Shown: one piece after another, positions 13,908-43,102 of the stretch
How positions within the stretch are numbered: the first letter of the stretch is position 1
Layout: each line of letters opens with the position of its first letter
DNA from: Blastocatellia bacterium
GTDB taxonomy: Bacteria; Acidobacteriota; Blastocatellia; HR10; J050
Direction: 5' to 3'
Assembly: GCA_025054955.1 (NCBI GenBank)
Contig: JANWZE010000031.1
Location: 38,567-102,566, forward strand
DNA length: 64,000 nt
Translations under genes and position numbers: made by a program
Notes under the pieces: generated by a model
The model's database searches: none
Told to the model about the DNA's origin: nothing
Seen by the model: the letters and a program-made list of their open reading frames with translations, nothing else

Positions 13908-13917
13908 GGAGCCAAGC

Positions 13918-14382: not shown

Positions 14383-14473
14383 CAGCGCGTCTGTCGCCGC
14401 GACATCGCCGATAGACGCAACGGCGAAAGCGTGGCGTCAGTTCGTGTGATGTGGCGGTTGGATGTGTTTGGTT

Positions 14474-15736: not shown

Positions 15737-15749
15737 GGAATCAGGGGTC

Positions 15750-18065: not shown

Positions 18066-18069
18066 ATCA

Positions 18070-19083: not shown

Positions 19084-19170
19084 TCGTTGATTGGCAGTGG
19101 CCAGTCGTTGCTCGTTAGCGCCTTTGGCTTGACCAGCATCGGACGACAAGCGGCGGACAGCGGGATTGAT

Positions 19171-19728: not shown

Positions 19729-19729
19729 T

Positions 19730-20032
19730 ATGATTCCAATGTCATGGTACTTAGCATTGGCCGCTGTGCTGTTTACAATTGGCGCTGTTGGCGTGGTCGT
19801 CAAGCGCAATGTCATTTCCATGATGATTGCCATTGAGTTGATGCTCAATTCGGCGAATCTGACACTGGTGACATTCTCCAGTTACTTTGGCGAGCTGAGC
19901 GGACAGGTGTTAGTTTTCTTCGTCATGGTCGTGGCCGCGGCAGAAGCGGCTGTCGGATTGGCGATTGTCGTGTTGTTATTCCGCAATCGTCAAACGATCA
20001 ACGTTGATGAAGCCAGCATGTTGAAGTTGTGA
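19730..20032 (+). CDS. nuoK: NADH-quinone oxidoreductase subunit K
   Basis: 100-aa 3-TM protein MIPMSWYLALAAVLFTIGAVGVVVKRN.... Confidence 0.9.
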   Translation: MIPMSWYLALAAVLFTIGAVGVVVKRNVISMMIAIELMLNSANLTLVTFSSYFGELSGQVLVFFVMVVAAAEAAVGLAIVVLLFRNRQTINVDEASMLKL

Positions 20033-20183
20033 TGGGGATCAGAAGTCTAGGTAAAGGATGTTGTATTCAACGTTGATGAAGCGAGCCTGTTGAAGTTGTG
20101 ATGGGGGTGAGAAATCTAAAACACATTGCATTCAACGTTGATGAAGCCAGTCTTGTTGAAACCTGTGATGCGATGAGAAGCCC
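20000..20183. repeat. three tandem ~65-bp copies of the nuoK 3' end (caacgttgatgaagc(c/g)ag...ttgaag(t/a)tgtgatgggg)
   Basis: Copy 1 is the true gene end and stop. Copies 2 and 3 fill the nuoK-nuoL spacer. Confidence 0.85.
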
Positions 20184-22151
20184 ATGTTAAAACTCGTTGT
20201 CTTCAGTCCACTGGTTGGCGCGGCGCTCATCGGCCTGTTTGGTCGCCGGTGGAGCGAGCGCCTGATTAGTTTGATCGGTTGCGCCTCGGTCGGCGTCTCG
20301 ATGATGGCGGCTTTTCATGTTTTCTTTGCCCGATTGCGATTCTTGCCTGAAGGCGAACGGATCATCCTCGAATCGGTCTACTCCTGGATTGTGTCTGGGC
20401 CATTGAAAGCCGAGTTCGGTTTTCAACTGGATGAATTGTCTGGCATCTATATTCTGTTTGTAACGTTCGTTGGCTTCTGGATTCATGTTTTCGCCGTCGG
20501 CTACATGCGTGGGGAGCCGGGATATTATCGCTTCTTCTGCTTCATGAATCTGTTCATGTTCATGATGCTGACGCTCGTGCTGGCCAATAATTTCTTGCTC
20601 ATGTTCGTTGGCTGGGAAGGCGTCGGACTATGCTCATATTTGCTCATCGGATTTTATTTCAAGCGCGGCTATGCGGCTGATGCGGCGAAGAAAGCGTTCA
20701 TCGTGAATCGGATTGGCGATGTTGGCTACGTGTTGGGCGTATTGCTGGTGTTCGCCCACTTTAAGACGATTGATTACTATCAGGTCATGATTGCTGCCAA
20801 ACAGATGCCGGTTGAGCCGCTGGGCACAATAGGCCTGTTGACGGCGATCAGTTTGTTATTTTTCCTTGGCTGCACCGGCAAGAGCGCGCAGATTCCGCTT
20901 TATGTTTGGTTGCCCGATGCGATGGCCGGCCCGACGCCGGTTTCTGCATTGATTCATGCGGCGACGATGGTCACAGCGGGCGTCTATCTGGTAGCGCGGG
21001 CCAGTTTCATCTTCGCGCAAGCGCCGACGGCGCTGGCAGTCGTCGCTGTGATCGGCGCGGTGACCGCCTTGTTTGCTGCGACAATTGCACTGGGTCAGGA
21101 CAACATCAAAAAGGTGCTGGCTTACTCAACTATCTCACAGCTTGGTTATATGTTCATGGCGTGCGGTGTCGGCGCATTTGTGGCCGGCATCTTTCATGTG
21201 GTGACGCACGCATTTTTCAAGGCGCTGCTGTTCTTGGGGGCGGGCAGCGTGATCCTGGCCTTGCACCATGAAGAGGACATGCGCCGGATGGGTGGATTGC
21301 AGCAGCGGTTGCCGGTAACCTACCGAACGTTCGTGATCGGGTGGTTGGCGTTGGCCGGCATCTTTCCTCTGTCAGGCTTCTTCAGCAAGGATGAAATTCT
21401 CTGGCGCACGTGGGCGACGCCGGTGTTGCCCGACCCGTGGGGCAAGCTGCTTTGGTTGCTGGGATTCCTCACGGCGATGCTCACAGCAGTTTACATGACG
21501 CGCCTCATGGTGATGACGTTTTACAGTGAGGCGCGTTTTGGCGCTTCAGCCAGTCATCATGGGGAGCATCATCCGCATGAAGCGCCACGTGAATCGCCTG
21601 CCGTCATGACCGTGCCGTTGATCGTGCTGGCCATCCTGTCAGTGGTCGGCGGGTGGATGGGCATTTCCGAAGGCTTGACCGGCGGCAAGATTCCAAATTG
21701 GTTTGAGCACTTCTTGCAGCCGGCCGTGGCGCCGTCGCCGGTCCATCCCAGTCACAGTCTAGCTGCTGTTGAACATCCGAGCCATGCGCTGGAAATTGGA
21801 CTGGCTGTGATGACTGTGGCGCTGGCGCTCATCGCGATTGTGTTGGCCTACCGCGCTTATCAACGGAAGCCGCTCTGGACGCCGCCAGCGGTGTTGGTCA
21901 ATAAGTATTGGGTTGATGAAATCTACGACCGGTTGGTGGTTCGACCAATCAAAACCGCGTCCACGCATCTGTTCTGGCAATTGATGGACGTCAAGGTGAT
22001 TGACGGCGCCGTCAACGGCACAGCCGAGCTAGTCCGCTGGTTTGGGCGCGGCCTGCGGCACATGCAAACAGGATTAGTGCGCTCGTATGTGGTGATGATT
22101 TTCTTGGGGGCTGTCGTGGTGATCGGTTATTTTGTGTTCGGTGGGAGATGA
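20184..22151 (+). CDS. nuoL: NADH-quinone oxidoreductase subunit L
   Basis: 655-aa antiporter-like subunit with a long C-terminal amphipathic extension. Confidence 0.95.
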   Translation: MLKLVVFSPLVGAALIGLFGRRWSERLISLIGCASVGVSMMAAFHVFFARLRFLPEGERIILESVYSWIVSGPLKAEFGFQLDELSGIYILFVTFVGFWIHVFAVGYMRGEPGYYRFFCFMNLFMFMMLTLVLANNFLLMFVGWEGVGLCSYLLIGFYFKRGYAADAAKKAFIVNRIGDVGYVLGVLLVFAHFKTIDYYQVMIAAKQMPVEPLGTIGLLTAISLLFFLGCTGKSAQIPLYVWLPDAMAGPTPVSALIHAATMVTAGVYLVARASFIFAQAPTALAVVAVIGAVTALFAATIALGQDNIKKVLAYSTISQLGYMFMACGVGAFVAGIFHVVTHAFFKALLFLGAGSVILALHHEEDMRRMGGLQQRLPVTYRTFVIGWLALAGIFPLSGFFSKDEILWRTWATPVLPDPWGKLLWLLGFLTAMLTAVYMTRLMVMTFYSEARFGASASHHGEHHPHEAPRESPAVMTVPLIVLAILSVVGGWMGISEGLTGGKIPNWFEHFLQPAVAPSPVHPSHSLAAVEHPSHALEIGLAVMTVALALIAIVLAYRAYQRKPLWTPPAVLVNKYWVDEIYDRLVVRPIKTASTHLFWQLMDVKVIDGAVNGTAELVRWFGRGLRHMQTGLVRSYVVMIFLGAVVVIGYFVFGGR

Positions 22152-22152
22152 C

Positions 22153-23730
22153 ATGGACGTTCTACTGGATCATCCGTTGACCTTGGTCGTGTTTTTGCCT
22201 ACAGTCGGCGCGGCGCTATTGTTGCTCTACAGCTTGTGGAGCGGCAAAGACGATGATGTCGTGCGATTCATCGCCTTTGTGTTTTCTTTGCTGACATTCA
22301 TCATGTCGCTGCCGCTGGTAGTTGGATTCAACCCGCGACTGAGTGGCATGCAGTTCACTGAGCGAGTGCCATGGATCAACAGTTTTGGCCTAAACGTGGA
22401 GTATCACCTCGGTCTGGATGGATTGAGTCTGTGGTTAGTGGTGTTGACGACAGTTCTGACCGTTGTCTCGGTGCTGGCCAGTTGGCAGTCAATTCAGCGA
22501 CATGTCAGCGAGTTCTTCATCTTCCTCTTGTTGTTGGAAACAGGCATTCTCGGCGTATTTGTTGCGCTCGACATGTTTCTTTTTTACTTGTTTTGGGAAG
22601 TGATGCTTGTGCCGATGTACTTTCTGATCGGCGTGTGGGGCGGCGAGCAGCGCATCTATGCGGCCATCAAGTTCATCATTTACACGATGGCTGGCTCGGT
22701 GCTGATGCTAGTGGCGATGCTGGCTCTCTACTATTTGAACGGGCAAGCAACCGGGCAGTATACGTTCGATCTCGTCCAGATCACCAAGAACCTGCAGCAA
22801 GGCGTCTTGACGTTGGACCCACAGGTTCAAATGTGGTTGTTCCTCGGTTTTGCCATTGCTTTCATGATCAAGGTTCCGCTCTTCCCATTGCATACATGGT
22901 TACCGGATGCGCACGTTGAAGCGCCGACGGCCGGTTCGATCATGCTGGCTGGCGTCTTGCTGAAGATGGGTACGTATGGCTTGTTGCGATTCAATCTGCC
23001 GATGTTTCCTCAAGCGACAGCCGAATGGACGACGCCGATTTGCATTCTCGCTGTCATTGGCATCATCTATGGCGCGTTGGTCGCTATGGTGCAGCCCGAC
23101 ATGAAAAAGCTCGTCGCCTATTCGTCAGTCAGTCACATGGGTTTCGTCGTGCTCGGCACATTTGCCCAGACGGAGCAAGCATTGCACGGCGCCATTTTTC
23201 AGATGCTCAGTCACGGCGTTGCCACGGGCGCATTGTTTTTGCTGGTTGGTATTATTTACGACCGGCGTCACACGCGGTTGATTGCTGATTTTGGCGGCAT
23301 CGCTAACGTCATGCCGGTTTACACGGGGATGTTTGGCATCATCATGCTGGCCTCGGTCGGGTTGCCAATGTTAAGTGGGTTTGTCGGCGAGTTTCTCGTC
23401 CTGGTTGGTACATACACGTCTAAGATCGCCTATGCTCGCTGGTTCACCGTCCTGGCCGCTCTGGGCGTGATTCTCTCTGCTGTATATCTGCTGTGGTTGT
23501 TCCAACGGGTTTTCATGGGCGAGATCACCAATCCGGAGAACGCTGCATTGGCGGATGTGAACGCACGCGAAAAAATGGCGATGATGCCGCTGGTGGTGCT
23601 GGTGATTGTGTTAGGCGTCGTGCCAAATTGGTTTTTGCGGAAGATGGACCCGGCTGTGCGAGCGGTGATGCCGGCGGCTGTGACAGCGGTGGAGAGTGGG
23701 CATGCTCAGTGGACAGTGGGCGGTGAGTAG
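22153..23730 (+). CDS. nuoM: NADH-quinone oxidoreductase subunit M
   Basis: Antiporter-like subunit. Start MDVLLDH placed immediately after the nuoL stop. Confidence 0.9.
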   Translation: MDVLLDHPLTLVVFLPTVGAALLLLYSLWSGKDDDVVRFIAFVFSLLTFIMSLPLVVGFNPRLSGMQFTERVPWINSFGLNVEYHLGLDGLSLWLVVLTTVLTVVSVLASWQSIQRHVSEFFIFLLLLETGILGVFVALDMFLFYLFWEVMLVPMYFLIGVWGGEQRIYAAIKFIIYTMAGSVLMLVAMLALYYLNGQATGQYTFDLVQITKNLQQGVLTLDPQVQMWLFLGFAIAFMIKVPLFPLHTWLPDAHVEAPTAGSIMLAGVLLKMGTYGLLRFNLPMFPQATAEWTTPICILAVIGIIYGALVAMVQPDMKKLVAYSSVSHMGFVVLGTFAQTEQALHGAIFQMLSHGVATGALFLLVGIIYDRRHTRLIADFGGIANVMPVYTGMFGIIMLASVGLPMLSGFVGEFLVLVGTYTSKIAYARWFTVLAALGVILSAVYLLWLFQRVFMGEITNPENAALADVNAREKMAMMPLVVLVIVLGVVPNWFLRKMDPAVRAVMPAAVTAVESGHAQWTVGGE

Positions 23731-23935
23731 TGGAGAGTGAGAGCGGTTTGCAAATGAGTTTATCCTGGGGGGCACGCACGTGCATCAGCCCGCAAGATGC
23801 AGGCCCCAGGCTAACGGCAATGGAAAATCGCTCTAGAGTGGACAGTCCACAGCACTCATCAACTGACCATTGATACAAACCGCCGACCACCGGCCACGAA
23901 TCACTGGCGTACTTGGGATTTCAGATTTTTAGTTT
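23690..23935. repeat. composite repeat: family-B 'gtggacag/gtggagag' blocks flanking a ~90-bp family-A structured element (23745-23836)
   Basis: Left B part 23690-23744, A element 23745-23836, right B part 23838-23880. The arrangement suggests A inserted into B. Confidence 0.7.
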
Positions 23936-25429
23936 ATGGGCATCGAAAGTTTGGCAATCAACTATCGCGTCATTCTGCCAGAGATCATCCTGGCGGCTAC
24001 TGGCATCGTGCTGATGTTGGTAGACGCCTTCGCGCCAAACGAGCGAAAAATACGCGCAGGCGTGATTTCATTGGTAGGATTGGCTGCTGCGTTGCTGGTT
24101 ACATGGCAGCTTCGAGATATACCGCCGCAGACAGCGTTCGCCGGCATGGTCATCGTAGATGGGTTTCGGGTGCTGTTCACGTTGATCGTCGTTATCGGCG
24201 CCATGCTGTCTGTATTGTTAGCGTGGAACTTCCTGGATGAAGAGCGCATTCAACCGACTGAGTACTATGCGCTCATTATGTTCTGCGCTGTTGGGATGGC
24301 GTTTTTGGCCAGCAGTCATGATCTGATCATGGTCTTTCTGGGGATGGAGACAGTCACCATCTCTACGTACGTCTTGGCCGGATACCGCCGCGACGATGTG
24401 CGCTCGACCGAAGCGGCGCTGAAATACTTCATTCTCGGCGCATTCTCATCTGCCTTTTTGATCTACGGGATCGCGTTGATTTACGGGGCGACGCGGACGA
24501 CGAACCTGGCCGGCATTCAGGCAGCCTTAAATGGGGCGATGGGCGAACCAGAACGGGCGTTGATGCTGGCTGGAGCGGCGATGTTACTCATTGGATTTGG
24601 ATTCAAGGTGACAACGGTGCCGTTCCACATCTGGACGCCAGATGTCTACGAAGGATCGCCGACGCCGGTGACGGCATTCCTTTCAGCAGCCACCAAAGCA
24701 GCCGGATTCGCGGCTTTCTTGCGCGTCTTTTCGCTCGTCTTTGGATTGCCGTTCACGCCCGACAGTGCGGGCAGCATGTTGCAAAGTCATTGGGTGTCGG
24801 CTTTGTCCGTCATGTCTATTCTCACCATGACGATTGCCAATCTGATTGCCATCACGCAGACCAATATCAAACGCATGCTGGCATATTCATCCATCGCTCA
24901 CGCTGGGTACGTGCTGATGGGACTTGTCGCGCGCGATTGGAAAGCGGTGGCGTTCTACATGCTGGCCTATACGATCATGAATCTGGGGGCCTTCGCCGTC
25001 GTTGCGCTCATCGCTCGACGTCATGACGAAAAGGTCTTGATCGAAGATTATCACGGATTAGGATTTCGCCAACCGGGATTGAGCTTTCCGCTCACTGTGT
25101 TCCTCATCAGCTTGACAGGCATCCCCGGCACAGCCGGATTCGTTGGCAAATTCTGGTTGTTCAAGTCGGCCTGGGAAGCGGGCTTTCCTGTGCTCGTGAT
25201 CGCGGCCGTCATCAATACGGTGGTCGCGGCTTACTACTACCTGTACGTTGTCATTGTCATGTTCTTCCGCGAGCCCAAGCGCGACATTGAATCGGTGCCG
25301 CTTCCCCGGGTGTTTGCGTTGACGCTGGCTCTGACCGTGTTTGGCACGTTTTATCTGGGGTTGCTGCCTGAGCGCGTCTTTCAATTCCTCAACGCCGCGC
25401 AAACCGCCGTGGCCGGACTGATCAGATAA
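23936..25429 (+). CDS. nuoN: NADH-quinone oxidoreductase subunit N
   Basis: 497-aa antiporter-like subunit. Last gene of the operon. Confidence 0.9.
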   Translation: MGIESLAINYRVILPEIILAATGIVLMLVDAFAPNERKIRAGVISLVGLAAALLVTWQLRDIPPQTAFAGMVIVDGFRVLFTLIVVIGAMLSVLLAWNFLDEERIQPTEYYALIMFCAVGMAFLASSHDLIMVFLGMETVTISTYVLAGYRRDDVRSTEAALKYFILGAFSSAFLIYGIALIYGATRTTNLAGIQAALNGAMGEPERALMLAGAAMLLIGFGFKVTTVPFHIWTPDVYEGSPTPVTAFLSAATKAAGFAAFLRVFSLVFGLPFTPDSAGSMLQSHWVSALSVMSILTMTIANLIAITQTNIKRMLAYSSIAHAGYVLMGLVARDWKAVAFYMLAYTIMNLGAFAVVALIARRHDEKVLIEDYHGLGFRQPGLSFPLTVFLISLTGIPGTAGFVGKFWLFKSAWEAGFPVLVIAAVINTVVAAYYYLYVVIVMFFREPKRDIESVPLPRVFALTLALTVFGTFYLGLLPERVFQFLNAAQTAVAGLIR

Positions 25430-26355: not shown

Positions 26356-29300
26356 TTAGAAAATGTAGCGCAACCCAAGTGTCACGCGACGGCGACCACC
26401 ATCCGTTCCCCACTGGTTGAGGAAATTGCCGGAATTGATACGCGCTTCAGGAATACCGAAATTGCGCGTGTTGGTGGTGTTGTACATCTCGACACGGAAC
26501 TGAATCCGCTGCGACTCGGTGATGTTGGTGTTCTTGAAAATACCGAGGTCCCAGTTGGTGATGCCATCGGCGCGCAGCACATTGCGACCAACGTTGCCCA
26601 ACCGCTCGCCGCGAGCTGGATCAACTTGACGGAACAAGCTCTGACCGCCGGCCCGAACAATCTCTTCAATGCTCATCGAAGAAAGGTCCAGCCCCGTGTT
26701 GAGATTGGCGCGGATGGCGTTGCCGACGAGTCCGTCAATGCCGGCCAGCGCGCCCGTTGGGTCCGCACCGTTCAATGCCGTGAATGGAGCGCCCGATTGC
26801 AGCGTCACAAATGAGTTGACTTGCCAACCGCCGAGAATGTGGCCAATCAGACCCTGCTGCTCACGGAAGAACGGCAATTCATAAACGAAGTTGGCCGAGA
26901 AACGATGCGGACGATCATAGGTCGAGCGACCACGGTCAGCGCGACGATTGAACGAGTCTTGCGACACGGCCACTTCGCCATTGACCGACGGATTGAAAAT
27001 TTCCGATGCGTCGTCAATGTAAGCGCTCCACGTGTAGTGCGCGCCCGCGCTGAAACCGCGAGACAAGCGCTTTTCAAGACTGACCTGCATCGAGTGGTAA
27101 ATGGACGAAGATGCGTTGGCGCGCAAACGTCGCACGCCCTCGTTCGGGTTGACGCGGACCAACGGTTGGCTAGCCGACGTACGCGGCAGCGCCGGATTGC
27201 CGTCAATCGTTTGGAACAGAGCTGTGCCCTTCGTGCCAACGTAGCCGACACTCAGCACAACGTCCGTCGTCAACTCGCGCTGAATCTGCAAGCTGTACTG
27301 ATCGGCGTATGGCGAGCGGAAGTCGGCTGCCACAATCGTCCGGGTTAGCGCGTCAGGATTCGCCACCGTAGGCGTCAACGTCGGCAGCACAACAAATGCA
27401 TTGGCCAGATTCGACCGGTTGATGGCTGCCACGAATGGGAATGAGCTGGCGACGTTCAGCGCAATGTTGATAAACGCATAATCGTTGGTGCGAGCATAGC
27501 CGCCACGCACAACCAGCTTGTCACCTCCGGTGAAGAAGCCCAGAATGCCGTCTTCGCTCGTTCGCGGATTCCAATTGAATCCGAAGCGAGGTTGCCAATT
27601 ATTGGTATCGCGCTTGGGTACAGGCTTCAAGGCATATCGTTGATCGCCACCGGCTGCTGCAATGATTCGCTGATTGACCGGCAACAGGCTCAGCAACGAC
27701 TCGCCCGGCGTCTCATATCGCAATCCATACGTCAGTGAGAAATTCGGGCGGACCCGCCACTCGTCCTGGAAGAACGCGAAGTAGTCGTACCACTTGTAGT
27801 ATTGAATCGCTTCGCCGCCTGGCAATGGTTTGTTGATGTTAGCTGCCTCAGCCACGTCATCCACGAAGGCCTGCAGCGTGGGGTAGCGCAATAGACCGCG
27901 GATCGTGGGGAAGAAGAAGCTCTTCACATCAATCCGGCGGAAGTCAATGCCTGCTTTGAGCGCATGGCCACCGGCCGTATAGGAAATTGTTTCCTGAATC
28001 TGATAGGTGTTGTTGTAACGGAACTGCGGCAGATTGACTGCCAACCCGATGGCGGTTCGGCTCGCTGCCGCATTGAATCCGGTCAAACCCAGTTGTGGAA
28101 TTTCAATTGAAGGAATTTGTTCCGACGATGGGTCGGATGCGCTGGTAATCGTGCCCAGCCGTTGATAAGAGACGCGGAATTCATTGAGCAGTCGCGGCGT
28201 GAACACACTGTTGAAATATGCCGTCGCAGCCTGCTGTCGAGCTTGGTTGGCCGTTGTTAATCCAGGTGGATTGGCCTGACCAGCACCGTCAGACTCCTGA
28301 TCGTTCCACAGGTAGCGAGCGCCGATTCGATGCTTCGCGTTGAAATGATGATCGCCGCGGACAGAGAACTGAGAATTATTGAGCTTGAAGCCCGTTGCGT
28401 TGCTCAATGTTCCCACAGGGATTTGCACTGTCTGCCCGCCAACGGTCAATGGAATGCTGCGGTTAAGCGGCGCTTGGGCTGCTGGCAGGAATCGCAGCAG
28501 GGCTTGCACCTGTGGCCGATTGCCGGCCAGTTGCTGAAGCAACCGACGGCCCTCTTCTGTTGGAACGCCATTGATGGTGCTGCCCGAGCCAAGCTGCCGA
28601 TCCGTCCAACCCTGGATCGAACCGAAAAAGAACGACTTGTCTTTGACAATTGGTCCACCGACCGTGCCGCCAAACTGATTCTCAATCCGGAACGGCGCAT
28701 CACTGAAGCGCGGGCGACCGCCAACTAGCACCTTGTCCAGATTGTTTCGCGAATTCAATTTGTTGGAATTGTGAAACCAGAAGGCCGACCCGTGCAGCTC
28801 GTTGGTGCCTTGCTTGGTGATGATGTTCATGACTGAACCGGCTGCGCGGCCGTACTCAGCCAGGAACTGATTGGTGATGAGTCGAATCTCTTGAATGAGG
28901 TCGGGATTGTTCAGTGGCTGCTGCAGCCCCGTGATTGACGGATCATTACTATCTTGTCCGTCAATCATGAAATTGTTCGAGCGCGTGCGCATGCCATTGA
29001 CCGAGAAACTAACGCCGCCAGTGGTGAATTGCGAATTACCAGCGGAAAGCTGGCTAACGCCGGCCACCGATAGTGCCACCGTCAGCACATTGCGATCAGG
29101 CGCCAGCGGCAGTTCCGAGATACGACGTGTATCAAACTGCACGCCGACTTCTGCGTTGGTGCGGTTCAGCAGCGGCGCGTCGCCTGTCACCGTGATAACT
29201 TCTTGTACGCCGGCCGGCTTCAACGTGACCTCAACCACCGCTTCTTGATTCAAAGCCAACGTAATGGGTGATTGAACATACCGAGCAAACCCAGTCTGTT

Positions 29301-29547
29301 CAACTGTCAACTCGTAGGTCCCCACGGGTAGGCCGGGAAACCGATAACGACCGTCACTATCTGTGGTTGCCGAACGCGACGTATTGGTTTGCATGTTGCG
29401 CACCGTCACGTTGGCACCCGTGATGACGGCCTTTTGCTCATCCATTACCGTTCCAGAAATGGTTCCGGTCGTAGATTGAGCTAGCCCATGTGTGCTCACT
29501 GCTGTGAATATCAGCAGAAGCATTAGAATTTGTTTCGTAGGTCTCAT
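26356..29547 (-). CDS. TonB-dependent outer-membrane receptor with N-terminal carboxypeptidase-regulatory-like (CarbopepD_reg) domain
   Basis: Signal peptide, then a ~80-aa Ig-like TGTISGTV...GTYELTV domain, plug and barrel. C-terminal ...LGLRYIF ends in Phe. RBS GGAGGAAG before the ATG at 29547. Confidence 0.8.
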   Translation of the reverse strand: MRPTKQILMLLLIFTAVSTHGLAQSTTGTISGTVMDEQKAVITGANVTVRNMQTNTSRSATTDSDGRYRFPGLPVGTYELTVEQTGFARYVQSPITLALNQEAVVEVTLKPAGVQEVITVTGDAPLLNRTNAEVGVQFDTRRISELPLAPDRNVLTVALSVAGVSQLSAGNSQFTTGGVSFSVNGMRTRSNNFMIDGQDSNDPSITGLQQPLNNPDLIQEIRLITNQFLAEYGRAAGSVMNIITKQGTNELHGSAFWFHNSNKLNSRNNLDKVLVGGRPRFSDAPFRIENQFGGTVGGPIVKDKSFFFGSIQGWTDRQLGSGSTINGVPTEEGRRLLQQLAGNRPQVQALLRFLPAAQAPLNRSIPLTVGGQTVQIPVGTLSNATGFKLNNSQFSVRGDHHFNAKHRIGARYLWNDQESDGAGQANPPGLTTANQARQQAATAYFNSVFTPRLLNEFRVSYQRLGTITSASDPSSEQIPSIEIPQLGLTGFNAAASRTAIGLAVNLPQFRYNNTYQIQETISYTAGGHALKAGIDFRRIDVKSFFFPTIRGLLRYPTLQAFVDDVAEAANINKPLPGGEAIQYYKWYDYFAFFQDEWRVRPNFSLTYGLRYETPGESLLSLLPVNQRIIAAAGGDQRYALKPVPKRDTNNWQPRFGFNWNPRTSEDGILGFFTGGDKLVVRGGYARTNDYAFINIALNVASSFPFVAAINRSNLANAFVVLPTLTPTVANPDALTRTIVAADFRSPYADQYSLQIQRELTTDVVLSVGYVGTKGTALFQTIDGNPALPRTSASQPLVRVNPNEGVRRLRANASSSIYHSMQVSLEKRLSRGFSAGAHYTWSAYIDDASEIFNPSVNGEVAVSQDSFNRRADRGRSTYDRPHRFSANFVYELPFFREQQGLIGHILGGWQVNSFVTLQSGAPFTALNGADPTGALAGIDGLVGNAIRANLNTGLDLSSMSIEEIVRAGGQSLFRQVDPARGERLGNVGRNVLRADGITNWDLGIFKNTNITESQRIQFRVEMYNTTNTRNFGIPEARINSGNFLNQWGTDGGRRRVTLGLRYIF

Positions 29548-29677
29548 AGCTTCCTCCAAGTTTGATAAGAAAATGCCGAAGTACAAGCGATGTTGCCAGC
29601 AATCCGCATGCCACCGGCAGGGTAAACCTATAATCCTTGAAAGAGCAATGAGTTAATTTTTATCGCCGACTGACATT

Positions 29678-29715
29678 ATCCATTTTTTTGGAAATCTGTG
29701 ACCAAAAAAATGGAT
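29678..29715. promoter_or_regulatory. perfect 14-bp-stem inverted repeat (atccatttttttgg-N10-ccaaaaaaatggat) in the receptor's 5' region
   Basis: Seen directly. The A/T tracts in both arms would make it a bidirectional terminator-like or operator-like structure. Confidence 0.5.
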
Positions 29716-30144: not shown

Positions 30145-30525
30145 TTAGAAGCCGCCAAACAGTTCAAATGAAAACAGGTCAAAAAGCCACTGAAACACGC
30201 GCCACGATGACTGGTAAGACCAATAATGAGTGCCATAGGAGGAATATGAATTGGCCTGAACACCCGCGACGGAACCACGACCAAAACCGGAGCCACCCAT
30301 GATACTGCCACTCACGCTGACATGCCCGATCGTCCCACTGCTGGAGCTAGCACCGCCAACAACTCCACTACCGCCACCGGGTCGGCCGGTGTGACCCTCT
30401 CTGGAGGCTTGTGAACTTATGCGAATGTCTCCACCGGGTCGGCCTGTATGGCCCTCTCGTGCAAAAACTGGAACCGTAGCCAAGAATAAAATGAAGAGTG
30501 CGAAAAGCGTCAATGTTTTCTTCAT
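30145..30525 (-). CDS. small secreted Gly/Ser-rich repeat protein (hypothetical)
   Basis: RBS GGAGGAAAGC before MKKTLTLFALFILFLATVPVFA (signal peptide). Internal repeat REGHTGRPGG x2. Confidence 0.5.
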   Translation of the reverse strand: MKKTLTLFALFILFLATVPVFAREGHTGRPGGDIRISSQASREGHTGRPGGGSGVVGGASSSSGTIGHVSVSGSIMGGSGFGRGSVAGVQANSYSSYGTHYWSYQSSWRVFQWLFDLFSFELFGGF

Positions 30526-30626: not shown

Positions 30627-32066
30627 TCAAACATTATATTTCCTTCTCAACATAGTGATATAAGCCTTGGTGACCCCAAGTAACTCAGCAGCGCGCACCT
30701 GACTTCCATTAGCGCGTTGCAACGCTTCCGTCAGTAAAAACTTACCCAGTGACTCATGGGCTTCTCGCCACGTCGGCAGAAAGCTGCTTTTGATAACAAA
30801 AACGCCGCCGGCTGTCTTGATTTTCTCTTCCTTGAGCAGGTTCTCGATTCGCTCGATCTGCGTCTTGATATAGGCATCTGTATAGCCGTTTAGCAAGTTC
30901 TTCGCTCGATGAAGATATTCATAAGCCACAACTCCCTCACCCTTGCGAGCGTAGACCTCAGCCAAATACGTGCAGCTTTCGCATTCGAGCATTTTACTTT
31001 TGAGCTGAATAGCAAGCCGCAAGGCCTCGTCGAGCTTTTCCTTGCTTTCGTCCAGCGCGCCTTGAGTAGCCAACACACGACCCAGTGTGATGAGCGCGAA
31101 CGCTTTCTCCTGGTCATTTTTGGCTAAGTCAGCCAGTTGAATAGCTGAGTAAAGGACCTGACGAGCTTCCTCCAAGCGCCCTTGCTCAAGATGTAATACG
31201 CCCATCAGCTCAAGCGTCATGGACTCGCCAGCAATATCAGTGGCCCGACGACGGAGTTCCAGGCTCTCTTGAAGCAGGTCTGCGGCTGCTTTGTACTTAC
31301 CAAGGCGAATATAGGTGTAGGCTAAGTTGTTTGTAGCATGGCCGAGGTCATCAAAGACCGCGCTTTCTGAAAAGTAATGAATCGCTTTTTGAAACAGCTC
31401 CGCCGCCTCATCATACCGTCCCTTTGCACGCAACAAGATGGCGTAACTATTCAACACACCTGCATAGTATCGCCCATCTTCGGTCTTTTTGAGCAGTTTT
31501 ATGGCTTTGTTGTAAAACGATTCGGCCTGACTTAACTCACCTAACTGGTGATGAATGACTCCCAGGTTGAACGAAATGATCCCGGTAATGAAGTCTGTGT
31601 CTATGTCTGTCTGTGACTCGATAACGTCTAGTGCTTCGTCCAGATGTTTTTTAGCAAGCTCATATTGACCCTGGCGACGGTAAATCCTGCCCAACACAGA
31701 GAGCGCACGAGCTTGACCAAACCTATCGCCCTTAATCCGGTAGATGCCCAGCACATTCTGTAATTGCTTCTCGGCCGCTTCATACTCACCCCGCCAGTAC
31801 AATAATTCTGTTTTGGCCAACCCAAATTCAGCCGTGTCTTTCAGGTTTGTCTCGTCGTCAATCTTGTCTTCAGACGATTGGAGCACCTCTTCCGCTTCTT
31901 CAAGCCGCCCTTGATAGATCAGAATGTGCGCCTTGATAGCCGAAGCTCGCAGTTCACTCGTATCAGGGATACGCTCGATGAGCTTCGCTGCTTGCTTGTA
32001 ATTCCCACGTAGTACTAAATCCTCAACTTGGGAGATGTCTGTGGTGTGCAAAATGGATTTTGTCAT
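30627..32066 (-). CDS. TPR-repeat regulator with C-terminal Fis-type helix-turn-helix
   Basis: About 8-10 TPR-like repeats. C-terminus ...EALQRANGSQVRAAELLGVTKAYITMLRRKYNV matches an HTH_8/Fis motif. GC content is lower than the surroundings. Confidence 0.7.
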   Translation of the reverse strand: MTKSILHTTDISQVEDLVLRGNYKQAAKLIERIPDTSELRASAIKAHILIYQGRLEEAEEVLQSSEDKIDDETNLKDTAEFGLAKTELLYWRGEYEAAEKQLQNVLGIYRIKGDRFGQARALSVLGRIYRRQGQYELAKKHLDEALDVIESQTDIDTDFITGIISFNLGVIHHQLGELSQAESFYNKAIKLLKKTEDGRYYAGVLNSYAILLRAKGRYDEAAELFQKAIHYFSESAVFDDLGHATNNLAYTYIRLGKYKAAADLLQESLELRRRATDIAGESMTLELMGVLHLEQGRLEEARQVLYSAIQLADLAKNDQEKAFALITLGRVLATQGALDESKEKLDEALRLAIQLKSKMLECESCTYLAEVYARKGEGVVAYEYLHRAKNLLNGYTDAYIKTQIERIENLLKEEKIKTAGGVFVIKSSFLPTWREAHESLGKFLLTEALQRANGSQVRAAELLGVTKAYITMLRRKYNV

Positions 32067-32243
32067 AATTGCCTTCCTTGTTTACGAGTATCAATTCTTA
32101 CCATAGTCAACATGAGTATACCAAAATGATGATTAATAGTCAATTCAAAAAATTATCTAGTTTCGATTACTGCAACTAATTCACTCAATAACAAAGAATT
32201 ATAAAATTTTCAATAAAAAAGTTCACAATAATAAATTTTCTTC

Positions 32244-32271
32244 TTGACAAATAGATTTATCATGCTATACT
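32244..32271 (+). promoter_or_regulatory. near-consensus sigma-70 promoter (TTGACA-16-TATACT) ahead of the peptide array, inside a <35% GC tract
   Basis: ttgaca at 32244-49 and tatact at 32266-71. The first peptide ATG is at 32313. Confidence 0.55.
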
Positions 32272-32312
32272 AATGACGTGTTTGACAATTATGAACTCAT
32301 AAGGAGTGAACG

Positions 32313-32426
32313 ATGAAAAACATTCGACAACAACTCGGACAGATTGATCCAATTACCTTGGCTTTGGCTCTCTTGCTGGCGCTTGGCACGTTCTTTAGCG
32401 GTGCTTGTCCCATTCCAACGCAGTAA
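32313..32426 (+). CDS. small peptide 1 of a tandem paralogous array (37 aa, MKNIRQQLGQIDPITLALALLLALGTFFSGACPIPTQ)
   Basis: Own RBS AAGGAG 6 nt upstream. Conserved core QLGQIDPITL(L/A)LALLLALGT-GACPI is shared with peptides 2-5. Confidence 0.6.
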   Translation: MKNIRQQLGQIDPITLALALLLALGTFFSGACPIPTQ

Positions 32427-32466
32427 GGAGTCTCTTTCTATCCAAAAATATAAAAGGAGAACGACA

Positions 32467-32568
32467 ATGAACAGAATCAAGCAGCAATTTGGTCAGATTG
32501 ACCCGATCACTTTACTGTTAGCTTTGCTCCTGGCCCTGGGCACAGGTGCTTGCCCTATTAGGTTTTAG
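32467..32568 (+). CDS. small peptide 2 (33 aa, MNRIKQQFGQIDPITLLLALLLALGTGACPIRF)
   Basis: RBS AAGGAGA. Paralog of peptide 1. Confidence 0.6.
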   Translation: MNRIKQQFGQIDPITLLLALLLALGTGACPIRF

Positions 32569-32610
32569 CAATTGAGATTTCTCTTAACTTCATATCAAGG
32601 AGTGATGATT

Positions 32611-32712
32611 ATGAATAAGATCAAACAGCAACTCGGACAGATTGACCCCATCACCCTATTGCTGGCTTTATTGTTGGCGCTGGGCACGGGTGCTTGCCCG
32701 ATTAGCTTTTAG
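32611..32712 (+). CDS. small peptide 3 (33 aa, MNKIKQQLGQIDPITLLLALLLALGTGACPISF)
   Basis: RBS AAGGAG 8 nt upstream. Paralog. Confidence 0.6.
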   Translation: MNKIKQQLGQIDPITLLLALLLALGTGACPISF

Positions 32713-32767
32713 TCGTAATTCAGGTTTTTCTTACTTTCAAAATATCAAATAAAAAAGGAGAAATGAC

Positions 32768-32875
32768 ATGAATAAGATCAAACAGCAACTCGGACAGATT
32801 GACCCCATCACCCTATTGCTGGCTTTGTTGTTGGCGCTGGGCACAGGCGCTTGCCCTATTGCGCTGGGTCGCTAA
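32768..32875 (+). CDS. small peptide 4 (35 aa, MNKIKQQLGQIDPITLLLALLLALGTGACPIALGR)
   Basis: RBS AAAAGGAGA. Paralog. Confidence 0.6.
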   Translation: MNKIKQQLGQIDPITLLLALLLALGTGACPIALGR

Positions 32876-32911
32876 TCACGACGCATCAGCCTGCAAATCA
32901 GGAGACGAAAC

Positions 32912-33013
32912 ATGAAAGCGATTACGCGACAGCTCGGACAAATAGATCCCGTTACCATTTTGATAGCCCTGTTGCTTGCACTAAGCGCGGGAACTTGTTC
33001 AATCGTACCCTGA
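32912..33013 (+). CDS. small peptide 5 (33 aa, MKAITRQLGQIDPVTILIALLLALSAGTCSIVP), most divergent copy
   Basis: RBS CAGGAGA. Paralog. Confidence 0.55.
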   Translation: MKAITRQLGQIDPVTILIALLLALSAGTCSIVP

Positions 33014-33036
33014 CCAGCTTTCAGGTCAACATCGGG

Positions 33037-33077
33037 ACCAAGCTGAGCATTTACCAAACCATCACGCTCAGCTTGGT
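33037..33077 (+). terminator. perfect 12-bp-stem hairpin (accaagctgagc-N17-gctcagcttggt) between the peptide array and the ECF sigma gene
   Basis: Seen directly. Followed by a weak T-rich stretch 'tcctgttat', so it may be a terminator or attenuator that allows read-through. Confidence 0.5.
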
Positions 33078-33108
33078 TCCTGTTATGGAGAGTTATGGAG
33101 GATCAGCT

Positions 33109-33708
33109 ATGGCTGCACAAATGGTTGCAAGATTGACGGATTTTCAGTTAGCTCGAGCTTCAGCCGCTGGGGATCATCGGGCTTTTGAAATGCTTTACTG
33201 CCAGCATCACCGACGGGTTTACAGTCTGTGCTTGAGGATGCTGAGGAACCACGAAGAGGCGGAGGATGTGACCCAAGAGGTTTTTCTCCAGGTCTATCGT
33301 AAGATCAATAGTTTTCAGGGCAATTCGGCTTTCACCACCTGGCTTCACCGATTGACAGTTAACATGGTGCTCATGTATTTACGGCGCAAACAGAAGGGGC
33401 ATAGGCAGGAAGAGACGTTGGAAGCAAACCAAATGGCCGATCCACTGGAGAATCGCAAACAGGTTGGGCATCCTGATTTTCCCATTGAGGCAGTTGATTT
33501 GCAGAACGCGATCAATGATCTACCAAATGGCTACCGCCAGGTCTTTATCCTGCATGATATCGAAGGATATGAGCACAATGAGATTAGTCAATTACTGGGC
33601 ATTAGCGTCGGAACGGCGAAATCTCAACTGCACAAAGCTCGGTTGAAACTGCGACAAGCGCTGCGAGCTACCCACCCGCAACAACTCGTGACGGCGACCG
33701 TTCAATAA
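33109..33708 (+). CDS. ECF-type (sigma-70 family) RNA polymerase sigma factor
   Basis: Region 2 (...DVTQEVFLQVYRKINSFQGNSAFTTWLHRLTVNMVLMYLRRK) and region 4 HTH (...NEISQLLGISVGTAKSQLHKARLKLR). Start set at MAAQMVARL with RBS GGAGGA, with 33085 as an alternative. No anti-sigma gene follows. Confidence 0.8.
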   Translation: MAAQMVARLTDFQLARASAAGDHRAFEMLYCQHHRRVYSLCLRMLRNHEEAEDVTQEVFLQVYRKINSFQGNSAFTTWLHRLTVNMVLMYLRRKQKGHRQEETLEANQMADPLENRKQVGHPDFPIEAVDLQNAINDLPNGYRQVFILHDIEGYEHNEISQLLGISVGTAKSQLHKARLKLRQALRATHPQQLVTATVQ

Positions 33709-38032: not shown

Positions 38033-39136
38033 TCATAGGTTGTTGCTAGCGCTGGCGGGCAGCGCGGCATGTCCTTGATAACAGCACGGACCCGGAGGAA
38101 TCCGTTTGCCATGCGGACAGTGCGTCGGGTGACCAAGGAAGGCGCATATACTATTGGTCATTTCCGGGCTTAAAATGTGCTCGAACACACAGGCTTCAGC
38201 TTCAGCCTGTTGATCCGGCATGCTGAGCGTGTTTGAGAAAAGCGTCTCAGCGAGCCGATGTCGTCGAATCAAGCTCCGAGCGCGTGCCTCGCCTTCCGAG
38301 GTGAGAAAGATGTCGTTGCCGTTGAGCGTGAACAACCGATTCATCCGCTCCGCATTGATATAGGCCTCACCGAACCGTCCGAGTGTTTTGATCACTGCAT
38401 CGCGTGTCAACTGACCGTCTTCTCTGAGCACCCAGAGTTGCTCCATGATTTCGTCAATGTTCTCCTCGACTTTTTCCGGCGTCAGATCAAAACCGATGAC
38501 GCGGCCATGATCCAGTTGAATCTGCCGATCCGCTTTCTGACCGATGCGGACATCGTGTGTGACCAGCACAATGGTATGGCCTTCGTGATGCAGTTCGCTC
38601 AACAGGTCCATGACAAGGCGTTCGTTCTCTTCATCAAGATTGCCCGTTGGCTCATCGGCCAGCAGCAAAGGCGGCTCATTGATCAGCGCCCGAGCGATGC
38701 ATACGCGCTGTTGTTCACCTCCGGAGAGCTCGCAAGGCCGATGGGTCAAGCGGTGGCCTAGGCCAACTCGCGCGAGCGCTTCGGCAGCTTCTTTCTCATC
38801 AACCATACTGTGGTAGTACTGAGCCAGCATGACGTTTTCCAGGGCTGTCAGATAAGGGATCAAGTGGAATTGTTGAAAAATCAGGCCGACATGTTCACGA
38901 CGGAATTCAGTCAATTGCGCGCCGGACAATTGCGTCACATCGTGGCCGGCAATCACCAGTCGTCCTTCGTCTGGTGTATCCAGGCAACCGAGCAAATTCA
39001 ACAGTGTCGTTTTACCTGAACCCGATGGCCCCATCACGGATACCCACTCGCCTTGCTCGATACGCATATCCACGTGATCAAGCGCGCGAACCGGGCCGTA
39101 GTCTTTGGTTAATTTTTCCGCCGTGATGAATGACAT
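38033..39136 (-). CDS. ABC transporter ATP-binding protein (LolD/MacB-type) fused to a C-terminal DtxR-like metalloregulator domain
   Basis: Walker [10 protein letters not shown], signature LSGGEQQR, Walker B LLLADEP. Residues ~225-367 align to the DtxR HTH plus metal-binding/dimerisation region (…[13 protein letters not shown]…[25 protein letters not shown]…) and end in a Cys-rich tail [13 protein letters not shown]. Confidence 0.75.
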
Positions 39137-41605: not shown

Positions 41606-43027
41606 TTAACGAGCGTACATCTCTGGGTTCTTCTCGAATGCCTTAGCGCATTCCGGCATTTTGCAAAAATAGTAAGTCCGCCCATTGTGCTGAACCTGCT
41701 TGCCCACATCAGCCATGCGCAGCTTCATCTGGCAAACAGGATCAAGAAGTTCGACCGGCTCGCTGTTGCCGAATCGTCCAACTTCCTTCATCACATCGCT
41801 GGCAGCGACCACTAACCAATCTCCATTAACGTGAGACGCCAGTGGAATGGGATTGCAGCCGCCGGTTTCGCCGATCGTCGGCGCATGAATATCTGCCGCG
41901 CAGTTGAGGCAGACGATCGCCCGGTCCTCCTGAACATATCCGTAAGCGCCGCAAATTTCGCAGGCGTCAAATGCCGTGCGGATTTTACCCTCGTCTGTCT
42001 TGAGCGCCAAAAAGCGAACCGTCGTCCCATTGACCGGCAAGCCGAAGCGATGAAGCTGGCCGTCATTGACCTCAGCGATAGGAATTTTGATCAGACCATT
42101 GTCGGCTTGCACGAGCTTCGGTGGACTAATCGTTCTCGAGCGCGTCGAGTAAGCATAATTGACTGTCAACACGGTGACGATCAAAACGCCAACCGTCGCC
42201 GTGATCAGTCGCCACCGCTTTTCCCGATTGAGCTGGGCCAATTGTTTGCGTGCTTCGGCCCCGTGAAGTTCAGCCGCCATGCTCAGGCGTTGTCGCGCTT
42301 GTTGACTGGGAACGAGTGTCATGATCAGTGGCAGCGCAATGATCGTCAAGATGAACAGCACATCGTGCTTGACAAGTGGTCCAATCAGGCTCATTTGGCG
42401 CGGCCCCAGAGGAATGACGCCGGCTTCCGCCAACTCGTGCAGACCACCGATTACAAGCTGCACGGCAAAGACCAGCAGCACAATACCTGTTACCTTGAAG
42501 AACCGGCCTAGATCAATGCGTACCGCTCCTTTGAATATGGCAATGCCCAGCGTCACGGCCAAACCAAGACCTATTATTCCGCCAAGCCAGCTAAGCAGCG
42601 CGTCGGTTGTCAAATTGACTGCGCTCAGAAATAGGATCGTCTCGATGCCTTCGCGAAAGATCATGACAAAAGTGAATCCAACAAGTCCCCACGAGTAGCC
42701 GGCAGCAGCTCCCTCGACAATTGTGCCGACGCGCTGCTCAATCTCTCCTTTTAATCTATGAGCCGTGCGCCACATCCAAATGATCATACTGCTGACAAAC
42801 ACAGCAGCCACCAGCATGGCAACGCCTTCAAATAACTCAGCGTTGAACTGAATGCGACTGAGACTCCACGCCCCGATGAGGCTAGCCAGCACAGCCAAGC
42901 TTAACCCCAAATAGACCGAGCGCGTTAAATCACTTCGCTCAATTTTGCGCAGGTAGGCCAGAATGATCCCAATAATGAGGGCGGCTTCAACGCCTTCACG
43001 CAACATGATGACGAGTGCTTGAAACAT
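41606..43027 (-). CDS. FTR1-family high-affinity iron permease fused to a Cys-rich periplasmic domain and a C-terminal YHS domain
   Basis: Two REXXE motifs (MLREGVEAAL, IFREGIETILF) in a 7-TM core. Then DACEICGAYGY...CLNCAADIH...GGCNP. Then the YHS-like DPVCQMKL...GRTYYFCKMPECAKAFEKNPEMY. Start set at MFQALVIML. Confidence 0.75.
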   Translation of the reverse strand: MFQALVIMLREGVEAALIIGIILAYLRKIERSDLTRSVYLGLSLAVLASLIGAWSLSRIQFNAELFEGVAMLVAAVFVSSMIIWMWRTAHRLKGEIEQRVGTIVEGAAAGYSWGLVGFTFVMIFREGIETILFLSAVNLTTDALLSWLGGIIGLGLAVTLGIAIFKGAVRIDLGRFFKVTGIVLLVFAVQLVIGGLHELAEAGVIPLGPRQMSLIGPLVKHDVLFILTIIALPLIMTLVPSQQARQRLSMAAELHGAEARKQLAQLNREKRWRLITATVGVLIVTVLTVNYAYSTRSRTISPPKLVQADNGLIKIPIAEVNDGQLHRFGLPVNGTTVRFLALKTDEGKIRTAFDACEICGAYGYVQEDRAIVCLNCAADIHAPTIGETGGCNPIPLASHVNGDWLVVAASDVMKEVGRFGNSEPVELLDPVCQMKLRMADVGKQVQHNGRTYYFCKMPECAKAFEKNPEMYAR

Positions 43028-43102
43028 AGGAATGGATCCTAATTTGAAAATGGTTTTCAATTTCGAGCAGAAGAGATTAACGACAGAAGGGGAAAAAGTC
43101 AA

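Follow-up and report, generated by a model that had tools for sequence, protein, structure and literature searches.

What do five very short open reading frames (ORFs), standing in tandem between a TPR-domain regulator gene and an extracytoplasmic function (ECF) sigma factor gene in a Blastocatellia bacterium, encode, and what might their products do there? The ORFs occupy positions 32313-33013 on the + strand of a stretch of 64,000 nucleotides (nt) that we call the window (GenBank assembly GCA_025054955.1, contig JANWZE010000031.1, positions 38,567 to 102,566 of the forward strand). A preliminary description of the locus had proposed a peptide signal, a precursor of ribosomally synthesized and post-translationally modified peptides (RiPPs), or a small membrane toxin. 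Our analysis shows that the array consists of real, conserved, unannotated genes for membrane-type peptides of ~35 residues. As to function, we tentatively favor single-pass membrane micro-proteins that form the membrane-spanning element of a sigma/TPR pathway, a reading that we consider possible rather than probable.

Organization and expression signals of the array

The five ORFs encode peptides of 33-37 amino acids (aa). The first, c1 (32313-32426; 37 aa; MKNIRQQLGQIDPITLALALLLALGTFFSGACPIPTQ), is of a "long" type that is present in most lineages, with a 3-residue insert and a PTQ tail. The next two, c2 (32467-32568; 33 aa; MNRIKQQFGQIDPITLLLALLLALGTGACPIRF) and c3 (32611-32712; 33 aa; MNKIKQQLGQIDPITLLLALLLALGTGACPISF), end in GTGACPIRF and GTGACPISF, respectively. 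The fourth, c4 (32768-32875; 35 aa; MNKIKQQLGQIDPITLLLALLLALGTGACPIALGR), ends in GTGACPIALGR and is a recent duplicate of c3, the two forming the only young pair in the array (dS 0.2, dN 0). The last, c5 (32912-33013; 33 aa; MKAITRQLGQIDPVTILIALLLALSAGTCSIVP), is a divergent type, and its orthologue is retained at two related loci, L009 and L014.

The preliminary description of five same-strand ORFs, about 150 bp apart and each with its own Shine-Dalgarno (SD) sequence, is borne out by the coordinates: start-to-start distances are 154, 144, 157 and 144 nt, and each ORF is preceded by a GGAG site ending 6-8 nt 5' of the ATG. The spacers between ORFs measure 36-55 nt and contain the SD only. 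The near-consensus sigma-70 promoter that had been noted in an AT-rich tract also stands (32244-32271, + strand; TTGACA-16-TATACT with a TG-extended -10, matching at 11 of 12 positions); the intergenic tract around it has 20-27% GC, compared with 55% for the window. Its hexamers are kept in all six aligned lineages of the clade to which the window belongs (clade 1; see below), with a single -10 substitution in L013, and an equivalent near-consensus sigma-70 promoter precedes the peptide genes in clade 2. The sole antisense promoter-like match at the array is weak (9/12).

This layout bears on the suggestion of tandem type I toxins, which we extended to other membrane-active toxins such as cytolysins resembling phenol-soluble modulins (PSMs) and leaderless bacteriocins. 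Small hydrophobic peptides encoded in tandem, each with its own SD, would fit, and PSM-alpha operons are comparably laid out. The array is polycistronic, though, and its 36-55-nt spacers leave no space for per-gene promoters or antisense RNA genes, while the single near-consensus promoter would be lethal with a type I toxin. The peptides are uniformly hydrophobic rather than amphipathic, they match no Hok, Ldr, Fst, TisB, Ibs, entericidin or bacteriocin family at E ≤ 10, no immunity or export gene accompanies them, and their synteny with regulatory genes is strict. A toxin of any of these kinds is highly improbable.

Two small terminator-like hairpins with T-rich tails lie within the 3' ends of c2 and c3 (32538-32555 and 32681-32700). 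They arise from the codons for L-G-T-G-A-C-P and are probably incidental, albeit partial termination inside the array could result.

Coding constraint in the peptide genes

Among the 31 aligned codons of c1-c5, the third position is variable in 28, the first in 14 and the second in 4. Pairwise ratios of nonsynonymous to synonymous substitution (dN/dS) are 0.01-0.2, with synonymous sites close to saturation. The five copies resemble one another far beyond chance, and similarity among them at the DNA level is confined to the ORFs, except for the SD. Because codon position 3 varies while position 2 barely does, and because dN/dS is low, the copies are genes and not a repeat; this rules out the possibility, raised in the preliminary description, of a DNA repeat without coding constraint or protein-level relation. 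The peptide genes are under purifying selection, and the same signal appears between lineages, where the ratio of nonsynonymous to synonymous polymorphism (pN/pS), pooled over orthologous copies, is 0.21.

Constraint is unevenly distributed along the peptide. Past the C-P-I motif near the C-terminus, pN/pS is 0.5, compared with 0.08 for codons 1-31 (values that are indicative, as the pairs are non-independent). The variable part of the tail amounts to just 2-4 residues, and the C-P-I before it is conserved. In the window, the tails of the five paralogues read PTQ, RF, SF, ALGR and VP.

Distinct paralogue types are retained between lineages: w1 and w5 of the window correspond to L014_1 and L014_4, the numbered copies of L006 correspond to those of L011 (L006_n with L011_n), and L019_1 and L019_3 group with L022_1 and L022_3. 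Because these types are kept across lineages, the copies are not merely dosage duplicates, which argues for sub-functionalized or hetero-oligomeric parts over simple dosage.

Distribution and conservation of the locus

The peptides match no family in Pfam, NCBIfam (both at E ≤ 10) or Rfam, so the preliminary view of an unrecognized, independently translated family of paralogous peptides holds. Three genuine clusters emerged when 1.84 billion cluster representatives were searched exhaustively with an HMMER profile, and a profile search of 5.8 billion sequences identified 19 unnamed peptides of 33-39 aa. A word-indexed protein search with the concatenated peptides returned no matches. When contigs were scanned with the TPR protein, the matches listed included just TPR similarities of 26-28% (L001 and L002). 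Literature on the module described below was sought in an ECF classification paper, a review of non-canonical ECF regulation and full-text searches, and it is undescribed there. The peptide family is novel and extremely rare.

Two further candidates were set aside. P0003, a 155-aa protein from a 3.9-Mb contig at NCBI, was matched in the profile search (E 1e-8); its three tandem repeats of 26-28 residues (DQVPVTMAFATLLELGQGSCPHVPLP) loosely resemble the peptide core (QVDPVT...LLALGTGACPIVP), but pairwise BLASTP found no similarity, and we treat the match as possibly spurious. The match to P0004 (1515 aa) was short and of low complexity.

Every recovered peptide locus has the same arrangement: 1-5 peptide genes, then a stem-loop, then the ECF sigma gene, with a gene for a TPR and HTH_8 protein divergent from them. 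The bracketing of the array by a TPR regulator and an ECF sigma factor that had been noted in the window is thus general, as the peptides always co-occur with both. Copy number varies among relatives, from one in L013 through two in L004, three in L006 and L011, and four in L009 and L014, to five in the window. L009, a close relative, has one copy fewer than the window, and its copy 2 (744-845) is a chimera with the N-terminus of c2 and the tail of c3; this is the signature of unequal crossing-over inside the array.

A second clade was reached through TPR-HTH orthologues at 54-57% identity (76-95% within clade 1) and comprises L019 (GCA_053490795.1), L021, L022 and L023. Its loci hold two or three peptide genes amid other neighbors (plsX-fabH, rpmF, dihydroorotase and CBS/PFOR genes). 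Together with a gene for an exported repeat protein, the peptide, ECF and TPR-HTH genes make up a four-gene module that is kept in ~10 lineages of the two clades with unrelated flanks. The peptides are found only with the other three module genes, whereas the converse fails at one locus, L017.

Peptide features and the possibility of lipidation

We compiled motif statistics from 27 distinct clade-1 sequences and lipobox and hydropathy counts from 28 members. Invariant positions in clade 1 are M1, Q7, G9, Q10, D12, P13, L20, a Gly at -2 relative to the Cys, and the Cys itself. The residue at -1 is always small (A in 19, T in 6, and G and S in one each), and the Cys is followed by P in 24 of the 27 and by I in 24 of the 27, with c5-type copies carrying Cys-Ser in place of Cys-Pro. 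In clade-2 peptides (e.g., MRTQHGQLDLAVLLLALLALIPLITSGSCPIPGISQ), the basic residues, G-Q-[IL]-D and the hydrophobic span are kept, as are G-S-C-P-I-P-G and a Q or G at the end. The span from D to C is 16, 17 or 19 residues long with a mean Kyte-Doolittle hydropathy of ~2.0, the N-terminus has a net charge of 0 to +2, and 4-7 residues follow the Cys. AlphaFold2, run with the family alignment, predicted a helix at residues 2-10, a break at D12/P13, a second helix at residues 13-28 and a coil tail (pLDDT 70.6).

These features make a lipoprotein-type precursor the strongest rival to the membrane-spanning reading, although we judge it unlikely. The peptide up to the Cys would be a type II signal peptide, and Lgt, LspA and possibly Lnt would convert the precursor into an acylated lipopeptide of 5-8 residues (lipid-Cys-Pro-Ile-x-x), serving as an abundant envelope lipopeptide or a signal; the released signal peptide would perhaps be processed in the manner of enterococcal pheromones. 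All 28 members have K or R in the first 7 residues, a 16-19-residue h-region and the Cys at position 29-32. A relaxed rule of the PROSITE PS51257 type ({DERK}(6)-[LIVMFWSTAG](2)-[LIVMFYSTAGCQ]-[AGS]-C), which is permissive for any hydrophobic helix with small residues and a Cys, is passed by 24 of the 28, the four failures having Thr at -1. That only small residues vary at -1 and that C-P-I is kept in both clades would also be expected, and cleavage by signal peptidase II followed by a site-2 protease is known to yield bioactive peptides from lipoprotein signal peptides (PMC10202637). On the other hand, none of the 28 fits the strict lipobox [LVI][ASTVI][GAS]C, because -3 is G, S, T or A rather than Leu and -2 is always Gly (the sequences examined contain just 1-3 candidate ordinary lipoproteins from which the clade's own lipobox might be derived). 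A normal lipoprotein signal peptide would have no use for the invariant cytoplasmic G-Q-x-D, and neither an Lgt nor an LspA gene lies within the module. We know of no precedent for a lipoprotein whose mature part is 4-7 residues long.

The basic leader, invariant Gly, acidic residue and hydrophobic helix also recall class III signals, and mini-pilins cleaved like prepilins after the invariant Gly (G|Q-x-D) were weighed. Neither G|[FYLIVM]-[ST]-[LT]-[LIVP]-E nor the Flp motif G-x-x-x-x-E-Y occurs, as the Gly is followed by Q-[ILV]-D-[PL]; the peptides match no Flp or pilin family in Pfam, and no peptidase or assembly gene is nearby. Two further candidates were rejected. An AgrD-type peptide would need an AgrB peptidase encoded nearby, exactly four residues after the Cys to form the thiolactone, and a charged recognition tail at the C-terminus; there is no AgrB and no AgrD match in Pfam, and just c2, c3 and c5 have a tail reaching Cys+4, the others reaching Cys+5 to +7. 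A heme-regulatory Cys-Pro motif was prompted by nearby iron genes, but those lie outside the conserved module and the c5 type has Cys-Ser.

The stem-loop and the ECF sigma factor

The perfect 12-bp hairpin that had been described after the array is present between c5 and the ECF gene (33034-33080, + strand; arms 33034-33048 and 33066-33080) and can be extended to 15 pairs with one G-U and two G-C pairs around a 17-nt loop. The region 33005-33115 folds more stably than shuffled versions of it (z = -4.1). Because it lacks a U-tract, the stem-loop is not a canonical intrinsic terminator. A strong GC-rich hairpin of differing sequence occurs at the equivalent place in all nine lineages folded, with stems of 15 bp in the window, 21 bp in L014, ~20 bp in L011 and the CCGGGCCCG type in clade 2; the L014 hairpin carries a compensatory A>G/T>C pair.

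The ECF gene (33109-33708, + strand) encodes a 199-aa protein closest to sigmas of the RpoE/SigE/SigW/SigM type and lies directly downstream of the peptide genes at every peptide locus. The spacer from the last peptide gene to the ECF gene is 93-290 nt long, both genes are on the same strand, and the spacer contains no recognizable sigma-70 or ECF-type promoter. In several lineages just ~28-45 nt separate the hairpin from the ECF start, too little sequence for a promoter of its own; we therefore conclude that the ECF gene is transcribed by read-through from the peptide promoter. In precursor-hairpin operons, a stem-loop passes only some transcripts to the downstream genes. By analogy, the hairpin probably serves as an attenuator or 3'-end stabilizer that gives high peptide and low sigma levels.

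A structured spacer directly between the array and the ECF gene would also suit regulatory upstream ORFs, whose translation rather than product controls the ECF gene. Sequestration of the ECF SD is not conserved, as its paired probability in the spacer structure ranges from 0.33 to 0.69 among lineages, and up to five full-length copies under selection at the amino acid level are unneeded for attenuation. We regard this explanation, together with the prepilin-like variant discussed above, as very unlikely. Translational coupling, in which the c5 stop region would pair with the ECF SD, looked possible in the window and was rejected because it is not conserved across lineages.

Sigmas of the RpoE/SigE/SigW/SigM type are usually held by a membrane anti-sigma factor. 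No anti-sigma domain was found next to the ECF gene in any module lineage, a situation shared with many ECF groups that have no known regulator (PMC7826278, PMC8999054). The gene after the ECF gene is convergent; in the window, L004, L009 and L014 it encodes an NtrC-type response regulator, and in L006 and clade 2 it is unrelated. Co-transcription and membrane anchoring, as expected of an anti-sigma factor, are found for the peptides (same strand, promoter-less spacer, hydrophobic helix), but their cytoplasmic part of 5-13 residues falls short of a sigma-binding domain, the smallest known anti-sigma domains being at least ~40 residues. No ECF-type promoter was seen in the module, both divergent promoters being of the sigma-70 type, and a search for GAAC-N-CGT 5' of the TonB-dependent receptor genes that neighbor the module had no match.

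The TPR-HTH regulator and the exported repeat protein

The divergent operon begins with the regulator gene (30627-32066, - strand), which encodes a 479-aa protein with a C-terminal HTH_8 domain of the Fis/NtrC type and no AAA+ domain. Its promoter (32115-32143, - strand; TTGACT-17-TATACT, sigma-70 type) stands back to back with the peptide promoter, and this pair of near-consensus sigma-70 promoters is conserved in both clades. The AlphaFold2 model (pLDDT 90.9) consists of ~10 TPR hairpins and a three-helix Fis-type HTH. Its Foldseek neighbors are peptide-groove TPR superhelices, namely LGN/Pins, KLC1, APPBP2 (with a degron peptide) and NprR, so the model is consistent with binding of a linear peptide, albeit not specific for it.

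The model bears on the analogy with quorum-sensing receptors of the RNPP family that the preliminary description had drawn. The part concerning the fold stood, as the TPR domain is modeled as a peptide-groove superhelix whose neighbors include NprR; the similarity itself is generic. Under such an analogy the N-terminal and hydrophobic part would be an export leader, and a short C-terminal peptide would be released, build up outside, re-enter the cell and bind the TPR-HTH protein in the manner of RNPP, Rgg/SHP or AimR systems. Adjacency of the peptide genes to a TPR and HTH regulator modeled in this way and the variation of tails among paralogues fit, and an operon in which a regulator gene comes after the peptide genes recalls three-component autoinduction operons. 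Several observations point the other way: the domain order and HTH type are unlike those of RNPP proteins, a single receptor would face as many as five different tails, constraint is lowest in the tail whereas the supposed leader holds the invariant residues, the module has no oligopeptide importer, dedicated exporter or processing peptidase, and the promoter is of a constitutive sigma-70 consensus type without visible autoinduction. Exported pheromones thus seem improbable.

RiPP precursors, with a conserved leader, a short variable core containing one Cys and enzymes encoded elsewhere, are suggested by the multiple copies, in which the N-terminal part is conserved and the C-terminal tail varies more, and by weak, far sub-threshold TPR similarities to HaaT and to proteins of the FxSxx-COOH system. 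These similarities lie far under family cut-offs and represent generic repeat likeness. No radical SAM, YcaO, LanB/C/M, peptidase-transporter or RRE-type gene occurs within ~12 kb or in ~10 related loci with differing flanks, and, where RiPP leaders are soluble, the "leader" is a membrane-type helix of strong hydrophobicity. We see scarcely any probability in this proposal of the preliminary description.

The fourth module gene (30145-30525, - strand) encodes an exported repeat protein of 126 aa (102-127 aa across lineages). It has a signal peptide and two (E/V)(G/S/T)(H/N/M/Q)(T/G)G(R/K)P repeats, its linker is rich in Gly and Ser, and its C-terminus is aromatic and acidic (e.g., WLFDLFSFELFGGF). 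The repeats are of the EGHTGRPG type in the window and contain GGRP in clade 2. The protein matches no Pfam or NCBIfam family. In every lineage with a long enough contig, including L017, its gene directly follows the TPR-HTH gene as part of one operon.

The lipobox-like site, the exported repeat protein, the lack of any anti-sigma gene and the read-through into the ECF gene past the hairpin had gone unmentioned in the preliminary description.

A possible membrane-spanning micro-protein

Under the reading that we tentatively favor, the peptides would be clade-restricted micro-proteins of ~35 residues that span the membrane once, N-terminus cytoplasmic and C-terminus periplasmic, and a single strong sigma-70 promoter would yield them in excess. 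Their transcript would run on, past a stem-loop that attenuates it, into the gene for an RpoE-like ECF sigma that lacks an anti-sigma gene, and the peptides would form with this sigma, the TPR/HTH_8 regulator and the exported repeat protein a four-gene module for envelope signaling. In the periplasm, G-[small]-C-P-I would hold its single thiol at the membrane surface, serve as the end that senses or is modified, and possibly touch the exported partner. In the cytoplasm, a partner would recognize G-Q-x-D; the most plausible candidate is the TPR regulator with its peptide-binding groove. The module would in this way control the operon and, through it, the activity of the sigma. We infer the topology, that the peptide stays intact, what it binds and in which direction regulation runs.

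Because invariant motifs flank the hydrophobic helix on both sides, the simplest explanation is that the intact peptide is the working unit. In support, the tail beyond C-P-I is far less constrained than the scaffold.

Several points weigh against this reading. A helix of 16 residues is short for a stable membrane span and more typical of the h-region of a signal peptide, and the small residue (A/G/S/T) that always stands at -1 to the Cys resembles a peptidase site. The topology call is weak, as the N-terminal net charge is low. Copy numbers of 1-5 combined with a very strong promoter would equally fit an abundant secreted product. At L017 (7001-8786), a TPR-HTH gene whose product is 54% identical and the exported repeat protein gene occur with no peptide or ECF gene; the locus instead holds a LacI-type regulator and sugar-acid genes. 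Because the TPR-HTH and exported-protein genes persist there with neither peptides nor ECF beside them, the two operons can be separated. The right flank of L017 (histidine kinase, response regulator, PhoU and pst genes) matches that of the peptide-bearing L021, which suggests that the peptides and ECF were lost or relocated.

A stronger form of the idea, which we consider rather doubtful, is that the peptides stand in for the missing anti-sigma factor as a new class of minimal transmembrane adaptors; a variant has them as true substrates of Lgt and LspA. In the adaptor version, a redox- or lipid-modifiable G-x-C-P-I end, perhaps contacted by the exported protein, would report the state of the envelope, the G-Q-x-D end would either be bound by the HTH_8 regulator, in its TPR groove, or act on the ECF sigma, and control of a sigma pathway would lie with 35-residue proteins that the same transcript yields in stoichiometric excess. 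In the Lgt/LspA variant, the module would meter the flux of lipoprotein maturation and yield ribosomal lipopeptides of 5-8 residues.

The locus is a compact, conserved four-gene module that ties a tandem micro-protein array to an ECF sigma without an anti-sigma gene. Conserved bacterial micro-proteins are systematically overlooked by annotation, and ECF sigmas without an anti-sigma gene are an open problem. If the peptides are lipidated, they would represent a ribosomal route to lipopeptides and the shortest lipoprotein products known to us; if they are intact adaptors, they would represent a new means of connecting the envelope with a cytoplasmic TPR regulator or an ECF sigma. If they are neither, curated databases would still gain a new and cleanly delimited micro-protein family.

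Flanking features

In clade 1, a gene for a TonB-dependent receptor (CarboxypepD_reg and OMP_b-brl_4 domains; 26356-29586 in the window) always lies beyond the exported-protein gene. The clade-1 receptors are non-orthologous and 32-53% identical; those of the window and L014 share 35% identity although their TPR-HTH proteins are 95% identical. Upstream of the receptor gene is a clade-1-only palindrome of ~36 bp (29679-29714, - strand; TCCAnnTTTTTGGA-N8-inverted copy), and 66-89 nt past it, depending on the locus, is a sigma-54-type -24/-12 element (29613-29598, - strand; TGGYAY-N5-TTGCW). Palindrome and element occur together once per locus (window 29598-29714, L011 4436-4573, L013 7215-7351, L014 3781-3918). 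This promoter cassette appears to be conserved while the cargo receptor gene is exchanged. The TPR-HTH_8 protein carries the type of DNA-binding domain found in sigma-54 activators, without the AAA+ domain, and it may act at the palindrome with, or against, a true activator such as the neighboring NtrC-type regulator.

Other genes around the module were recorded as side observations. In the window, an unusual fusion of ABC_tran and Fe_dep_repr_C (DtxR-type) domains (38033-39136, - strand), kept in L009 and L014, is encoded beside two MacB/FtsX permease genes, and an FTR1 iron permease is joined to an FtrD-like domain and a YHS domain in a single ORF (41606-43102, - strand). In L013, two adjacent 51-aa ORFs (2165-2320 and 2358-2513, - strand) lie beside a second TonB-dependent receptor gene. 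A complete-looking run of NADH:quinone oxidoreductase (nuo) genes lies upstream of the module (12702-25429, + strand), and because of this run we take the window to be chromosomal core and not a mobile element. No tRNA genes were found in the window.

Comparison with known systems

In size and context, the peptides resemble MgrB, which acts on PhoQ, and the YxlD/YxlE- and YhdK-type small membrane proteins of ECF sigma systems in Bacillus, which likewise have fewer than 50 aa and one hydrophobic helix and are tied to a signaling system. MgrB also has a functionally important periplasmic Cys, comparable to the single Cys of the module peptides, which is predicted to be periplasmic. The module peptides differ from all of these in having no sequence relation to them, in being encoded in 1-5 copies 5' of the sigma gene with no recognizable anti-sigma gene, and in having a TPR-HTH_8 regulator and an exported repeat protein as module partners. 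A requirement for small membrane proteins, in addition to an anti-sigma factor, has been described for the ECF31 sigma SigY (PMC7826278).

With the enterococcal pheromones cAD1 and cCF10, which depend on signal peptidase II, the site-2 protease Eep/RseP and an ABC exporter, the module peptides share a type II-like signal and a small residue before the Cys. Those pheromones are by-products of normal-sized lipoproteins of Firmicutes, whereas the "mature" part of the module peptides is 4-7 residues, the strict lipobox is absent, and the host looks diderm and Acidobacteria-like, judging from its type of TonB receptor. The processing of lipoprotein signal peptides into signals is itself established (PMC10202637).

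Like RpoE-RseA and SigW-RsiW, the module has an RpoE/SigW-like ECF sigma gene co-transcribed with genes for single-pass proteins of predicted N-in topology, and its gene for a predicted periplasmic accessory protein parallels RseB. The order is reversed, with the peptides first, a hairpin precedes the sigma gene, and the cytoplasmic part of the peptides is 5-13 residues long.

The RNPP systems (Rap, NprR, PlcR and PrgX with Phr, NprX or PapR peptides) likewise place a TPR superhelix with an HTH beside small-peptide genes. The TPR-HTH model aligns to apo NprR (5dbk) with a target-normalized TM-score of 0.71, and many eukaryotic TPR proteins score better. Its HTH is C-terminal and of the Fis/NtrC type rather than N-terminal and of the XRE type, and the module has no Opp importer. 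Finally, lantibiotic operons of the nisA type and pilin operons also have abundantly expressed small genes followed by a stem-loop; in the module, the gene downstream of the stem-loop encodes a sigma factor and not modification or export machinery.

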